From the sequence record MT150133.1: a stretch of 64,000 bases of DNA, one strand, 5' to 3'. A program made the position numbers and the translations under genes. Each line of letters opens with the position of its first letter. The first letter of the stretch is position 1. The notes beneath the pieces are model-generated. The model saw only the letters and a list, made by a program, of their open reading frames with translations. It was not told where the DNA came from and made no database searches. Below, piece by piece: positions 27,617-33,745 of this stretch. Source of the DNA: Enterobacteria phage vB_EcoM_IME540.

Positions 27617-28281
27617 TGACTTTAACTGAAATGAAAAGCGGGTTAAAATCCCGCTTAGCTGATTATTTGGAATTATCTTATACCAGTGACAAGCCTACTG
27701 CTGTCGCTGACCAACGACCTATTGGTGGCCCTTCTGCAAACCAAACCCAGAAGGGTGTTTATTTTCCTACGGTCCAAAGTGCAATAGATGATATTGCATT
27801 TAGAGCAGAGCTTCCTGTGAACTCTGTTATTGTTACTACGGAAAATAGAGCCCCCGGATTTATTCAGCAATCTGATAAAATTACATTTACTGGTTCTATT
27901 TCTTCGGGTGGTGAACTTGGCGACCCGGTTATTATTAAAGTGTTTGGACTTCCTGTAGAGGTCTTAGTTGGTGATTCATCCGTATTGGTTGCATCTAAAG
28001 TAAATGATGTGTTTTTAGACGCTATTGCTAATAGCTATATTTTGGCCGAAACTGCTATTGATGCCTTAGACCAATCTACCTTGAATATTAAATACAATGA
28101 CTATCAGAATCATATTTTTTCACCATATAAACAATCGGGTTGTACAATTTCCCATACCATAGTCCAACAGCCGAGGGCTGGATACGGCAAGTGGGAATAC
28201 TTAGGTAACTCTACCCAATCGTTAGCAGGTGGTACAGTTAACGGCACGATTCCTTTATATTACTATAAGAGATTATATTAA
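27616..28281 (+). CDS. 11: baseplate wedge protein gp11
   Basis: 221 aa, TAATG-coupled; matches T4 gp11. Confidence 0.9.
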   Translation: MTLTEMKSGLKSRLADYLELSYTSDKPTAVADQRPIGGPSANQTQKGVYFPTVQSAIDDIAFRAELPVNSVIVTTENRAPGFIQQSDKITFTGSISSGGELGDPVIIKVFGLPVEVLVGDSSVLVASKVNDVFLDAIANSYILAETAIDALDQSTLNIKYNDYQNHIFSPYKQSGCTISHTIVQQPRAGYGKWEYLGNSTQSLAGGTVNGTIPLYYYKRLY

Positions 28282-29807
28282 TGTCAACAAACACACTAAA
28301 ACACATTAGTGATAAATCGGAATTCAAATCATTCGACCCTACTGGGTCGAATTTCCCACCTGATATTACTAATGTTCAAGAAGCATTGGCAACTATTTCA
28401 TTAATCGGTGTCACAGGTAATGTTCCTTCAGCCACAGAAACATCCCAAGGTATTATTCGTCTGGCCACAACACAAGAAGTAATGGATGGATTGGATGCTT
28501 ATAGTGCAGTGACCCCAGCAACTTTAAAAGCCCGTTTAGATATTCCTACTCAGGCAACAGAAACTTATGTAGGTATCACCCGTTACGCTACTAACGCTGA
28601 AGCTATAGCAGGCACAGAGCCCCAGGCTGCAATCGTAGCAACCTCTTTGAAAGCGGTAATGGATTATACATTTGAGAACCGTTTATCAACAGAGAACGCC
28701 ACAGGCGTTATCAAGATTTCAACTACACCTGCTGCATTAGCTGGTACCGATGATACCACAGCGATGTCCCCACTTAAAGTATCGCAAGCAATTGGTGCAG
28801 CGACAGCAGCTTTACCGGTTTATTCTACGGCAACGACTACAAATGAAGGTTTAGTTCGTTTAGCGACTAATGCTGAAGTTGGTAATGGAAATCTTTCTGT
28901 AGGTATCGCTATTTCTCCAGCAGGATTAGCCACATTAACTTCCACCGAAGAACGAAGCGGTATTATTAAACTCGCTGGTTGGGATATGGTATCTAATGGT
29001 ACTGACCACACCGCCGCTGTTACACCTGCTTCTTTGTTAGCTCGTACAGGTAATACCGGACGCATTGGATTGGTTCGATTATCTACTACCGTAGGTCAAG
29101 GCGACGGTAATACAGCACTGGCTTATAATGCTAACGTTATTTCTACTTCAGGCGGTGAAATATGGGGTACTTTAAACGTTAATGGCGCATTACGCCGTAA
29201 TGGTGTTGATGTTGTTACCCACGACCAATTATCAGATAGCGTCCCGGTAGGTACTATTTGTATGTGGGGTGGCCATGAAGGTAATATACCTGGTAAATGG
29301 CGTGCTTGTGTAGGTGGGACTTACACCGGTGGAGCATATTTAAATGCTGTTGGTGGACGTTGGGGATGGTGGGGTGCTATTCCGGATTTCCGTGGATTAT
29401 ATCCTCGTGGCGCTAACATGGTTGGCGGATATTCTGAAGGCGAAGTTAACCCACATATTGCCGGTAACCGAGGAGAAGACGGTAAAGGTAAAGCCCGTTT
29501 AGGTAATGGTGTTGGTTCGTTCCCACAATCTTCCGTTCAAGCCCAAGCATTACGTTATCATAAACATGCTGGTGGTTTTGGTGAACACGATAACTATGGC
29601 GCTTTTGGTAACACCGCTAACTCCGGATATGTTGGTACTCGTAAAGGACTTGACTGGGATAACCGTAGTTATTTTACTAACGAAGGGTTTGAAACCACCG
29701 ATCCTTGGAACCGTGATGGCCATAGCACACTGAATAGTGAAGGACTTATTGCAAATGAAACACGTCCTTGGACAATGTCCGTTCTTTTTATTATTAAAGT
29801 AGAATAA
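28281..29807 (+). CDS. 12: short tail fiber protein gp12
   Basis: 508 aa with internal repeats (GIIRLATTQEVMDG, GITRYATNAEAIAG, GLVRLATNAEVGNG) typical of gp12. Confidence 0.9.
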   Translation: MSTNTLKHISDKSEFKSFDPTGSNFPPDITNVQEALATISLIGVTGNVPSATETSQGIIRLATTQEVMDGLDAYSAVTPATLKARLDIPTQATETYVGITRYATNAEAIAGTEPQAAIVATSLKAVMDYTFENRLSTENATGVIKISTTPAALAGTDDTTAMSPLKVSQAIGAATAALPVYSTATTTNEGLVRLATNAEVGNGNLSVGIAISPAGLATLTSTEERSGIIKLAGWDMVSNGTDHTAAVTPASLLARTGNTGRIGLVRLSTTVGQGDGNTALAYNANVISTSGGEIWGTLNVNGALRRNGVDVVTHDQLSDSVPVGTICMWGGHEGNIPGKWRACVGGTYTGGAYLNAVGGRWGWWGAIPDFRGLYPRGANMVGGYSEGEVNPHIAGNRGEDGKGKARLGNGVGSFPQSSVQAQALRYHKHAGGFGEHDNYGAFGNTANSGYVGTRKGLDWDNRSYFTNEGFETTDPWNRDGHSTLNSEGLIANETRPWTMSVLFIIKVE

Positions 29808-29816
29808 GGGTAAAAA

Positions 29817-31979
29817 ATGATTAACAAATTGGAACTTAGTGAGTTACCATTTGTTGACGGCGTACCTGATGCTCCTCAAAAGCGTATCCAATGGATACGC
29901 GAGGGTGATTGTATGTCTGCAGCAAAAACAAAATACGGCAATGAAGGTAATTTGAACGCTGCTGCTTTAGGAGTTCAGAAAAACGTTGAAGCTCTTGATG
30001 CGAATGATTTGAAAACAGCAGATAAAGTTAACGAACTGGTAGAAAACGTTAATAATATCAATGATGCCTTAGAAATGGCTACTGATATTTCCGTCATCCA
30101 GCAAATTGAGAAAAACCGTGTTGATATCGTGGACCTTAAAAAGGTTACTTCAGAAACAACAGGAAAATTGGATGAGTTAACCACCAATTTTGATTACTTG
30201 CGTGAAGACGTTGGTTACCATGACCCTTTACAAGACGGCCCATATTTAACTGTACGTGAAAATATTGTTCTTCTTAAAACCGAAATAGGTCATTATGAAA
30301 ACCAGGATATAAATGGCAATCCATTGCCTCCGGGTGAAACCAATGAAGCCACTGGTATGAAACGTCGCATCATTGATAATACCACTCAATTGGTCGACCA
30401 TCGTCTTCGCATTGATACCCTTGAAAGGAATTATGAAGATTCTGACGTCGGGCAACTAGGTATTAAATTAAATGAAATTCGTGCTGAACTTGGCCCTCAT
30501 TCTGATACTGTAGGTAAACAACCGGCTTATACCCGAATTTCTGTATTAGAAACGGCTGCAATTAATTTCAATACATCTATCGACGAAATTAAGACTAATA
30601 TTGATTTCTCCGGTATGCCTATAAAGGACCGAGTAACTACTTTAGAAAGCAAAACTCTTACCCTAGAAAATTCAGTCAACGTTGATTTAAAACCTCGTGT
30701 AACATCAATTGAAACCCAAATAGGATCCGAATCAACTCCTACTTCTATTAATGGGCGTTTGAGCGGTCTTCGCACCGATGTAAATGACCTTAAAACCATA
30801 GTAGGTGTTAGTTCAAGTGATGGCTTACGTTTCCAAGTTACTGATATCAACCGCCGTTTAGGTGGTGAAGTATCTCCGGCAGCTGGGACCATTAATAAGC
30901 GTTTAAATGACGTTATTATCCAAGCAAACCAATCTACTTCATCTATCCAGGATATTCAAGTAGAAATTGGAAATAACCAATCCGGTATTAAGGGTACTTT
31001 ACTTAAACTCACCAATAAGGTTGACGGGACAAACCCTAACGGTGCTACTGTAGAAGAACGTGGTCTTATTAACGCGGTTACTTCTTTAGAAACCCAGATG
31101 TTAGGTAAGTTGAATGATGCCCCTTCCGATGGTAAACTTTATGCTCGTCGTAATGCTACATGGACCGAAGTTCCTAACGTTTCTACTGAAATAGAATCTG
31201 TTAAGGATGATTTAGTTGTTACCGATGGTAAAGTGGCAGCTTTAACTTCTAGAGTCGATGGTAATGATACCTCAATTTCTTCTCTTGATACTCGCACCGG
31301 TGCATTAAACACTTCGGTTGGTGAGATTAAAGCAGATATCGTTACTATAAAGGCTAAAGACCTTGAACAGGACAGTCGTTTAACAGCACTTGAATCTAGT
31401 GATGTTACTGTTAATGGAAAAATAACGGCACTTGAATCTAAAACCGATACCACCGATTCTGATGTTACCGCTTTGGCCTTAGATGTGAGTTCTATAGAAT
31501 CACAATTAATTCCTATTAAAGCTGATATAACTAAGAACAAAGGCGATATAGTTACTTTAACCGGACGAGTAGCTGCTAATGAAGGTGAAATTGCCGATAT
31601 TAAATTAGACACCGCTAAAATAGCTCCTTTGGCTACTCGAGTCACTACTGCTGAAGGTAAAATTACCACCTTAGAAACAGGTTTGGCAGCAGTTAAAGTT
31701 GAATCCGATAAAGTTGCAGGAATCAATACCCGTTTAGGTACGGTAGAAGGTAAAGTTGGTACTCTTGAAACAGGTTTAGCAGCGGTTAAAGTTGAATCTG
31801 ATAAAGTTGCTGATTTAGGAACCCGTTTAACTGCGGCTGAAGGTAAAATCACTGCACTAGAAACTGAGTTGGCCAAACGCCCTCCTGTTGCTCCTGTTGC
31901 TGATGGACTTCCATATGTTCTTGTTGATAATGCGTGGGTGCTATTGTCAGATTTTGTGACTTTAAACCCAGCACCATAA
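29817..31979 (+). CDS. wac: fibritin (whisker antigen control, neck whiskers), extended form
   Basis: 720 aa; N-terminus MINKLELSELPFVDGVPDAPQKRIQWIREGD; long coiled coil; foldon-like C-terminus GLPYVLVDNAWVLLSDF. Confidence 0.85.
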   Translation: MINKLELSELPFVDGVPDAPQKRIQWIREGDCMSAAKTKYGNEGNLNAAALGVQKNVEALDANDLKTADKVNELVENVNNINDALEMATDISVIQQIEKNRVDIVDLKKVTSETTGKLDELTTNFDYLREDVGYHDPLQDGPYLTVRENIVLLKTEIGHYENQDINGNPLPPGETNEATGMKRRIIDNTTQLVDHRLRIDTLERNYEDSDVGQLGIKLNEIRAELGPHSDTVGKQPAYTRISVLETAAINFNTSIDEIKTNIDFSGMPIKDRVTTLESKTLTLENSVNVDLKPRVTSIETQIGSESTPTSINGRLSGLRTDVNDLKTIVGVSSSDGLRFQVTDINRRLGGEVSPAAGTINKRLNDVIIQANQSTSSIQDIQVEIGNNQSGIKGTLLKLTNKVDGTNPNGATVEERGLINAVTSLETQMLGKLNDAPSDGKLYARRNATWTEVPNVSTEIESVKDDLVVTDGKVAALTSRVDGNDTSISSLDTRTGALNTSVGEIKADIVTIKAKDLEQDSRLTALESSDVTVNGKITALESKTDTTDSDVTALALDVSSIESQLIPIKADITKNKGDIVTLTGRVAANEGEIADIKLDTAKIAPLATRVTTAEGKITTLETGLAAVKVESDKVAGINTRLGTVEGKVGTLETGLAAVKVESDKVADLGTRLTAAEGKITALETELAKRPPVAPVADGLPYVLVDNAWVLLSDFVTLNPAP
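31650..31870 (+). repeat. tandem ~90-bp direct repeat inside wac
   Basis: Near-identical DNA segments (cttgaaacaggtttagcagcggttaaagttgaatctgataaagttgc) encode repeated EGK.TTLETGLAAVKVESDKVA. Confidence 0.7.
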
Positions 31980-31980
31980 T

Positions 31981-32012
31981 AAAAGGGCTTCGGCCCTTTT
32001 TTGCTATAAATA
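31981..32012 (+). terminator. rho-independent terminator (AAAAGGGC-TTCG-GCCCTTTTTT) followed by late promoter TATAAATA (32005-32012) for gene 13
   Basis: GC stem, TTCG loop, T-run, then exact late consensus. Confidence 0.65.
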
Positions 32013-32033
32013 CGGTTATTAGAGGAATAAACC

Positions 32034-32969
32034 ATGGCAAGTGAATCATATAACCCTAAGCAACTCAAGGACGCAATCCTGCGCCGCCTGGGTGCACCGA
32101 TTACGAATATTGAAGTAACTACAGACCAAGTATACGATTGCATCCAGCGCGCCCTGGAGCTCTACGGTGAGTATCATTATAACGGCTATAACAAAGGTTA
32201 TCAGGCTTTTTATATAGGCCATGATGACGAAGAAAAATTCCGTAACGGCGTATTTGACCTTAAAGGCCGTAATATATTTGCGGTAACACAAATTTTAAGA
32301 ACTAATGTAGGTTCTTTAACATCTATGGATGGCCAAGCGACTTATCCATGGTTTACTGATTTTGTATTAGGCCTAGCTGGTATTAATGGCGGTCTTGGAA
32401 CTTCTTGTAACAGCTTTGGGCCTAATGCCTTTGGTGCTGACCTCGGGTATTTTACACAATTAATGCAATATCGTTCTATGATGCAGGACCTTTTGGTTCC
32501 ATTGCCTGATTATTGGTATAACGATGCCACTGAACAGTTGAAGGTAATGGGTAACTTTGTTAAAGGCGATTTTATTGTAATTGAAGTTTATACTCGCTCT
32601 TTTAATGGGGTCGATTCTATGGTAGGAAATACCGCAGGATATGGATATGCCTCTGGTGGGTGCGACGAAAATGAATGGAGCCCCGGAGCTATTTGGGATA
32701 ACCCGGCTCGTCGTATTTCAGGTATGAGGGCAGGTGAAGACCTTGGTTTGCAAGATGGTTCATATAATAACCGTTGGGTCAAAGATTATGCGACGGCATT
32801 GGTTAAAGAAGTCAATGGTAATATTTTGGCCAAACACCAAGGCATGCAACTTGCGGGTGGAACCACTGTAGATGGTATTCGATTGATTGAAGAAGCTCGT
32901 TTAGAAAAAGAACGCCTTCGCGAAGAATTAGATTTACTCGACCCACCAACACCTATTTTAATTGGATAA
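32034..32969 (+). CDS. 13: neck protein gp13
   Basis: 311 aa; RBS AGAGGAA; matches T4 gp13. Confidence 0.9.
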
Positions 32970-32971
32970 TT

Positions 32972-33745
32972 ATGGCTACTTTCGATTCGAGTTTATTTGC
33001 CAAGCTGGAAAATAATACTGGCTATGCTAACACGAACGAAACTGAAATAATGAATCCGTTCGTCAACTTCTACAAGCATGAGAATACCCAAACATTGGCT
33101 GATGCTTTAGTTGCTGAGTCTATTCAAATGCGTGGTATTGAGCTTTATTATATACCACGTGAATACGTTAATCCAGACCAGATATTTGGCGAAGACCTTC
33201 AGAACAAATTTACTAAAGCCTGGAAATTTGCAGGTTATTTGGATTCCTTTGAAGGTTATTCCGGTGACAATACTTATTTCAGTAAGTTCGGTATGATGGT
33301 TAATGATGAAGTAACAATCACAATTAACCCTAACCTTTTTAAACATCAATGCAATGGCACTGAACCTGTTTCAGGTGATTTGATTTATTTCCCTATGGAT
33401 AACAGCCTATTCGAAATTAACTGGGTGCAACCTTATGACCCGTTCTATCAAGTGGGTGCTAATGTCCAGCGTCGAATCACTGCTACCAAGTTCATTTACA
33501 ATGGTGAAGAACTTCGTCCTGAATTACAGAGAAATGAAGGTATTAATATTCCTGAGTTTAGTGAGCTTGATTTAATGCCTGTTAAGAATATCGACGGATT
33601 GGCTGATATCTCCGACATTCAATATGAAGAGGTCAATGAGATTAATGCTGAAGCGGCGGAATTCGTACATCCTTATGTTGTAATTAATGGACGAGGAGAA
33701 GATGCTCCTCCTACAGCATTCGATGATGCTTTTTTAGATGATTAA
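32972..33745 (+). CDS. 14: neck protein gp14
   Basis: 257 aa; matches T4 gp14. Confidence 0.9.

Follow-up and report, generated by a model that had tools for sequence, protein, structure and literature searches.

wac encodes fibritin, the neck collar/whisker protein, and occupies positions 29817 to 31979 on the plus strand of the window, the 64,000-nucleotide stretch of DNA analysed here. The coding sequence comprises 720 codons plus a stop, and its identity was established from the open reading frame (ORF), phmmer, Pfam, and nucleotide identity. It begins with an ATG codon preceded by TAAGGG, a Shine-Dalgarno-like motif, and ends with a TAA codon that is followed by a second TAA. Residues 5–429 match T4 fibritin (2bsg_A, 487 aa) with an E-value of 1.8e-74. 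The Pfam Fibritin_C profile is matched over positions 2–92 of 93 by residues 371–454 (E = 1.7e-27), which places this match mid-protein, away from the C-terminal end. These matches bear out an earlier note on this DNA, which had described a 720-aa fibritin far longer than the 487-aa protein of T4. The gene is 97.8% identical at the DNA level to the one annotated as fibritin in Salmonella phage vB_SalM_ABTNLsp5 and 85–95% identical to the genes of MX01, LHE83, VR5, JS10, and JS98, all of which belong to Dhakavirus. JS98 wac shares 84.9% nucleotide identity across 93% of the gene. By these sequence comparisons, the ORF is a real gene, the wac/fibritin gene of a Dhakavirus (JS98-like T-even phage).

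The gene is flanked by gp12 (28281–29807) on one side and by gp13/gp14 (32034–33745) on the other. Pfam detects short-tail-fibre domains of gp12 at 28281–29807 and T4_neck-protein at 32972–33745, in the second downstream ORF, and the orthologous neighbours in relatives are annotated gp12, gp13, and gp14. wac thus lies between gene 12 and genes 13/14, the position that characterizes a fibritin gene. The ORF list contains no additional ORF in the interval between wac and gene 13. This interval holds, on the plus strand at 31981–32012, a hairpin and its T-run (AAAAGGGCTTCGGCCCTTTTTT), after which comes TATAAATA, both read from the sequence. The latter matches the T4 late-promoter consensus and is on that basis treated as a putative promoter of gene 13. 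A promoter and terminator scan within wac gave nothing above the shuffle expectation, and the hairpin 3' of the stop codon was not listed by it.

The protein begins with a neck-attachment domain (aa 1–68; 30020 is its last nucleotide and 29817 its first, plus strand), which was delimited by alignment to the T4 N-terminal constructs. Residues 6–68 match the T4 fibritin N-terminal structures 1ox3_A and 2ibl_A with E-values of about 1e-13, as expected of a fibritin, whose conserved attachment domain is ~50 aa long. This domain is nearly invariant in the closest relatives, and its conservation is still clear in the Dhakavirus lineage that is more distant. It is followed by a proximal, T4-like segmented coiled-coil rod (aa 69–429; 30021–31103, plus strand), which is collinear with T4 residues ~69–431 and includes the NPNG(A/S)TVEERGL loop within the T4 alignment. 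The rod ends in an internal foldon-like motif, foldon 1 (aa 431–455, KLNDAPSDGKLYARRNATWTEVPNV; 31107–31181, plus strand), which was located by the end of the Fibritin_C match and by BLASTP, where KLNDAPSDGKLYARRNATWTEV (aa 431–452) matches the T4 foldon with an E-value of 9e-7.

About 265 residues of chain lie beyond the internal foldon, first a spacer coiled coil and then the second foldon. The non-repeated part of the spacer (aa 456–606; 31182–31634, plus strand) was defined by a heptad-phase scan and AF2. Next come two 31-aa repeat units, recognized by repeat finders and by unit comparison. Unit 1 (aa 607–637, TRVTTAEGKITTLETGLAAVKVESDKVAGIN) lies at 31635–31727 and unit 2 (aa 638–668, TRLGTVEGKVGTLETGLAAVKVESDKVADLG) at 31728–31820, both on the plus strand. 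They are followed by a partial third unit with a proline linker (aa 669–690, TRLTAAEGKITALETELAKRPP; 31821–31886, plus strand), and this stretch aligns with the final coiled-coil segment in T4 fibritin. The chain closes with foldon 2 (aa 691–720, VAPVADGLPYVLVDNAWVLLSDFVTLNPAP; 31887–31976, plus strand), found by BLASTP and phmmer. The stretch matched to the T4 C-terminus (aa 663–720; BLASTP E = 1e-8, with 35% identity across 57 aa) is made up of this second foldon-like motif, VADGLPYVLVDNAWVLLSDFV, and the coiled-coil segment that precedes it. phmmer also matches residues 645–715 to 1avy_A (E = 0.019).

The heptad scan of the spacer gave essentially one phase from residue ~449 to ~606, although two short stretches within it scored low. 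Across the repeat units the phase moves by +3 per unit (3, 6, 2, 5), because 31 equals 4 x 7 + 3. The heptad periodicity across residues ~449–690 and the collinearity of the rod with T4 together describe a coiled-coil shaft. Single-sequence AF2 modelling of residues 395–720 predicted a helix at residues ~455–687 with a pLDDT of ~70–93. Both foldon regions scored below 50 in this model and their hairpins were not predicted, so the foldon fold of the internal motif is assigned from sequence homology and the literature. The Pfam scan of the protein detected no further domain. A spacer match to the coiled coil of tail-needle gp26 (4lin_A, E = 2.6e-5) was weak and was set aside as coiled-coil resemblance and not homology, and sub-threshold Pfam coiled-coil matches (DUF7310, LIP-1, and others) were disregarded.

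This plan corresponds to a fibritin type that is already described. In the JS98-type fibritin, a spacer of variable length that shows a coiled-coil pattern lies between two foldon-like motifs (Letarov and Krisch 2013, PMC3797505); where the type is introduced, that article cites Latypov et al. 2007 (JS98-C3). The window protein has two T4-like foldon motifs (aa 431–455 and aa 691–720), whose starts are 258 aa apart, and it resembles JS98 fibritin (GenBank AAU29287.1) in the two foldons, the variable spacer, the position of the gene, and the residue at which foldon 1 begins. The two differ in unit number and length: the window protein has 2 full units and 720 aa, JS98 has 3 units and 751 aa, and JS98-C3 has no units and 515 aa. 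We are therefore highly confident that the ORF encodes a Dhakavirus gpWac of the described JS98 type, with a variable 31-aa array in its distal spacer. No result spoke against this identification.

T4 gpWac (PDB 2BSG, 3J2O, 1AA0, 1AVY, and 1OX3) shares with the window protein a collinear N-terminal domain and rod, a C-terminal foldon, and a gene position between genes 12 and 13. In contrast, T4 gpWac has one foldon in 487 aa, whereas the window protein adds an internal foldon and a coiled coil of ~235 aa before the terminal segment. Foldon 2 also differs from the T4 foldon in that Glu and Arg (PEAP..YVRK) are replaced by Val and Leu (PVAP..YVLV). The T4 rod corresponds to residues 1–429 of the window protein, and the T4 terminal segment fits residues ~664–714 best. 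This correspondence agrees with the view of Letarov and Krisch that a single deletion in the JS98 type could have given rise to the T4 type, one duplication or deletion being enough to convert either type into the other (PMC3797505). The window protein exceeds T4 fibritin by ~233 residues, of which the repeat array spans at most ~84, that is, at most a third. Judged from this alignment, most of the excess length over T4 comes from the JS98-type architecture and not from the tandem repeat that the earlier note had linked with the elongation.

In T4, fibritin's N-terminal domain binds domain III of gp13, and twelve trimers are attached to gp13, six of them making up the collar and the other six the whiskers (PMC12929629). 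T4 fibritin is a parallel trimer nucleated by the foldon, and its distal end meets the long tail fibre near the knee (PMC3797505). JS98 fibritin is reported, from biochemical work, to self-trimerize through its foldon motifs without a dedicated chaperone (PMC3797505), and the lack of an extra ORF between wac and gene 13 in the window is consistent with the same behaviour. By analogy with T4, we infer that the window protein has a collar and whisker role on the virion and takes part in tail-fibre attachment and retraction. In the sequence, the T4-like neck-binding domain and rod (aa 1–429) end in the internal foldon-like motif (aa ~431–455), and the chain then resumes as a second alpha-helical coiled coil (aa ~456–690) that ends in the highly conserved second foldon (aa ~691–720). 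The 31-aa modules, which consist of four heptads and three further residues each, occupy the distal end of the spacer. If T4 biology applies, the protein would be a parallel trimer, with one or both foldons as the nucleus of its folding, and twelve such trimers attached to gp13 would make up the collar and whiskers of the neck. Their distal ends would touch the long tail fibres, aiding their attachment and keeping them retracted. The rise of an alpha-helical coiled coil is ~0.148 nm per residue, and each 31-aa unit would thus lengthen the distal rod by ~4.6 nm (31 x ~0.148 nm).

Distal modules also vary in other fibritins. RB43-type fibritins carry 1 or 3 Ig-like C-terminal domains (PMC3797505), and, as in the window protein, the number of distal modules varies among close relatives. 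The RB43-type module is a globular Ig-like domain in a protein that has no foldon, whereas the window module is a coiled-coil segment. Gaprivervirus (VR7/VR26/MN01) has the two-foldon plan, a homologous spacer, and a foldon 2 nearly identical to that of the window protein. It differs in expanding a neighbouring 24-aa unit (..EITAIKLDTAKIAPL..; ~3 copies in VR26 and ~6 in MN01) and not the 31-aa unit.

The repeat of the window gene was reported by TRF at 31644–31864 on the plus strand (period 93, 2.4 copies, 73% matches, score 258), and it is the only array that scores at least 60 within the 64-kb window. In the register of the repeat finder, copy 1 (31646–31738) and copy 2 (31739–31831) share 75% identity. 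In the codon register, units 1 and 2 are 71% identical at the nucleotide level (27 differences in 93 nt) and 74% identical at the amino acid level. The longest exact run common to both is 14 nt, and good conservation between the copies is confined to a core of ~45 nt. The earlier note had described a repeat of near-identical copies in the coiled-coil rod. The in-frame 93-bp array of 2.4 copies is indeed present there, but the copies are not near-identical, and the long slippage homology that would mark a recent or contingency-type repeat is not seen.

To place the array among its relatives, 17 wac sequences were compared, namely those of the window, 13 further Dhakavirus, and three Gaprivervirus. 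The foldon 1 motif starts at residue 438 in 14 of 14 Dhakavirus proteins by motif scan, after correction for IME08, whose start is annotated 23 aa upstream. Foldon 2, by comparison, starts anywhere from residue 490 to 775 in these proteins, and the distance between foldon starts ranges from 52 to 337 aa. A fixed foldon 1 and a free distal length suggest that the length of the proximal rod is constrained while the distal part is tolerant. An array of 1 to 4.5 31-aa units is present in 10–11 of the 14 Dhakavirus genes and absent in 3–4. PSD2002 and dhaeg have 1 unit; the window, ABTNLsp5, and dhabil have 2; EcoM005 has 2.5; JS98 has 3; VR5 has 3.5; and JS10, IME341, and IME08 have 4.5. QL01, C6, and JS98-C3 have 0 units and lack most of the spacer. 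A half unit is 17 aa, that is, 31 minus 14 (two heptads). The proteins are 514, 515, 529, 689, 720, 737, 751, 768, and 799 aa long, and all differences above 689 aa lie inside the 31-aa array. Comparison of wac lengths among relatives, which the earlier note had proposed as a check, therefore agrees with its suggestion that repeat number varies. The two-foldon plan is common to every Dhakavirus and Gaprivervirus gene examined, and foldon 2 with its KRPP linker is nearly invariant in the 17 sequences of both genera.

The variation in unit number could be neutral drift in a distal rod that tolerates changes in length, with no tuning of whisker function, and we give this reading a little less than an even chance. 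Phages that are viable and closely related carry spacers of anything from ~52 to 337 aa, measured between foldon starts, and the short, QL01-like form of 529 aa is the commonest among sequenced isolates, judged from matched lengths. The position of foldon 1 is fixed and the distal part is freely variable, which also accords with drift. Against strict neutrality, only in-frame, heptad-compatible changes (31 aa; 14 aa) are found, which indicates selection for an intact fibre, although not for a particular length. We consider it unlikely that the 31-aa array (24-aa in Gaprivervirus) is instead a length-tuning hotspot, where gains and losses of one unit and module exchange alter the reach of foldon 2 and the internal foldon serves as an in-line trimerization node. 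If it were one, the strength of tail-fibre retraction would change, giving heritable variation of adsorption in phage populations, and the internal foldon would let the distal rod be resized with the folding of the proximal rod unharmed.

A further proposal, in which the distal module (spacer and foldon 2) performs a separate function that T4 fibritin does not have, for example by touching the host surface or another virion component, is improbable. Foldon 2 and the KRPP linker remain nearly invariant across two genera, whereas elsewhere in the gene identity falls to ~50–65%. This implies that a partner or a role in folding constrains them strongly, and the Ig-like C-terminal domains of other fibritin types (PMC3797505) also speak for such a function. 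However, the terminal segment is the part most like the T4 C-terminus, and no extra domain was detected. Owing to this likeness, the conservation of foldon 2 can be explained by the roles known from T4, namely as trimerization nucleus and as the site of tail-fibre contact.

On the reading drawn from the earlier note, a ~90-bp unit had recently expanded in tandem in the window phage, lengthening a T4-type fibritin, and this expansion would explain the extra length. The array is in-frame, with a 93-bp period and 2.4 copies, and copy number differs among relatives, as such an expansion would require. However, the copies are only 71–75% identical with no exact run above 14 nt, and most of the extra residues belong to the non-repeated spacer and the second foldon. 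The comparison with other phages refutes a recent origin: unit 1 of the window is 82–93% identical at the nucleotide level to the first unit in other Dhakaviruses, and unit 2 shares 88–100% of its nucleotides with the full unit that stands last in ABTNLsp5, IME08, IME341, JS10, and JS98. Since the units are closer to their positional counterparts than to each other, the duplication predates the sampled Dhakavirus diversity, and a recent expansion is very unlikely. The least probable explanation, with hardly any chance of being correct, is the assembly or collapse-expansion artefact that the earlier note had named as the finding that would overturn it: repeats are a classic source of mis-assembly, but units that differ at 27 of 93 nt make this unlikely, the reading frame is intact through to the conserved foldon, and the same 2163-bp, two-unit organization occurs in ABTNLsp5, MX01, LHE83, and dhabil, which are independent assemblies from different laboratories.

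The array of this JS98-type fibritin is, as read from the unit comparison, composed of the ancient "first" and "last" anchor units without interior units. Recent change is seen in relatives. The wac genes of dhabil and dhaeg differ by 2 substitutions in 2070 aligned nt and by exactly one 93-bp unit, and the junction of this indel falls within the 8-nt GATAAAGT shared by the units. By this alignment, the difference between the two phages is a recent one-unit change, as the earlier note's idea of a variable repeat number had foreseen. In PSD2002 the sole unit is chimeric, part first unit and part last unit. Comparison of the window gene with those of IME341 and IME08 gave 56–78% identity over the first 1350 nt and 94–97% from nt 1651 to the end. 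This mosaic pattern indicates that spacer modules move between diverged Dhakavirus lineages by recombination. Unit number would change when short stretches that are identical within the conserved core of the units recombine or slip against each other, a mechanism that we infer from junction sequences in relatives and not in the window phage.

The two-foldon, variable-spacer architecture is already published, and genes of the same length and unit count are present in GenBank. A literature search returned no paper that joins fibritin with Dhakavirus, nothing on fibritin tandem repeats beyond Letarov and Krisch, and no description at the level of units (31-aa modules, the 17-aa half unit, and anchored first and last units). 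This unit-level description may be a small new detail, and not a new kind of thing. Its value as a discovery is low and its by-products are descriptive. Spacer length changes in discrete steps, either of 31 aa (three residues more than four heptads) or of 14 aa (two heptads). The units at the two ends of the array are anchored, and variation is limited to the interior units. The relatives form a natural series from 514 to 799 aa that is suited to asking whether whisker length affects tail-fibre retraction. A foldon that naturally sits mid-chain may also be of interest in protein engineering, where the foldon serves as a trimerization tag.

A word-indexed protein database search with residues 430–720 was dominated by generic coiled-coil candidates and returned 4 distant matches. 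A 334-aa antisense ORF (31139–32143, minus strand) was considered as an overlapping gene and rejected, because a codon-shuffled spacer is expected to hold ~2 stops in this frame and the frame is broken in dhabil and dhaeg. Matches in an IMG/VR scan were to sequenced isolates only. A metagenome scan recovered two loci, both of them short-spacer, two-foldon genes.

The fibritin gene wac (29817-31979, plus strand; 720 aa) encodes an internal foldon (foldon 1, aa 431-455) and a C-terminal foldon (foldon 2), separated by a coiled-coil spacer that ends in 31-aa repeat units. Comparison with the Dhakavirus relatives IME341 and IME08 placed a breakpoint at window positions ~31300-31470 (wac nt ~1500-1650), with 56-78% identity upstream of it and 94-97% downstream. 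This pattern indicates that the module of spacer and foldon 2 has been swapped among diverged Dhakavirus lineages by recombination. A second small mosaic segment is located in the proximal rod. Against QL01 and PSD2002, wac nt 301-450 (window ~30117-30266, aa ~105-130) showed 75% identity, compared with 95-100% in the neighbouring bins, and the protein reads VDLKKVTSETTGKLDELTTNFDYLR in the window and VELKRVEGETTTGLNNLTINLDHLK in QL01 and PSD2002.

Fibritins of Gaprivervirus have expanded another unit, a 24-aa ..EITAIKLDTAKIAPL(T/D)xRV.. sequence, which is present in ~6 copies in MN01 wac (locus L014, aa ~580-735) and in ~3 copies in VR26 wac (locus L013, aa ~585-650), whereas the window wac carries one copy (aa ~583-606). 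Like the 31-aa unit of the window, the 24-aa unit comprises whole heptads plus three residues.

Foldon 2 (31887-31976) aligns with the T4 foldon, but has Val (PVAP) and Leu (YVLV) where T4 has Glu (PEAP) and Arg (YVRK), which are partners in an inter-chain salt bridge in T4. Foldon 1 has Asp and Arg at these positions. On the alignment, the Val and Leu of foldon 2 may represent a paired charged-to-hydrophobic replacement relative to T4.

Within the spacer, aa 501-661 (31317-31799) matched 4lin_A weakly in phmmer (E = 2.6e-5), which probably reflects generic coiled-coil resemblance; 4lin_A is a trimeric coiled coil from the tail-needle protein gp26. A 334-aa ORF on the minus strand (31139-32143) lies antisense to the spacer, to a hairpin between wac and gene 13, and to the first part of gene 13. 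It was rejected as a gene, because only ~2 stops are expected in its frame for codon-shuffled wac spacer sequence and the frame is interrupted in the relatives dhabil and dhaeg. The ORF looks like a compositional artefact of the T/A/V/L/D/K-rich codons of the coiled coil.

The hairpin, AAAAGGGC-TTCG-GCCCTTTTTT followed by TATAAATA, lies immediately 3' of the wac stop codon (31981-32012) and was not picked up by a consensus terminator scan. TATAAATA, which is found 22 nt upstream of the gene 13 start, corresponds to the T4 late-promoter consensus and is a putative promoter. Further downstream, genes 13 and 14 of the window adjoin at 32969-32972 without an insert, unlike those of VR26, in which a SegC-like homing endonuclease gene (L013 3657-4238) lies between the two.
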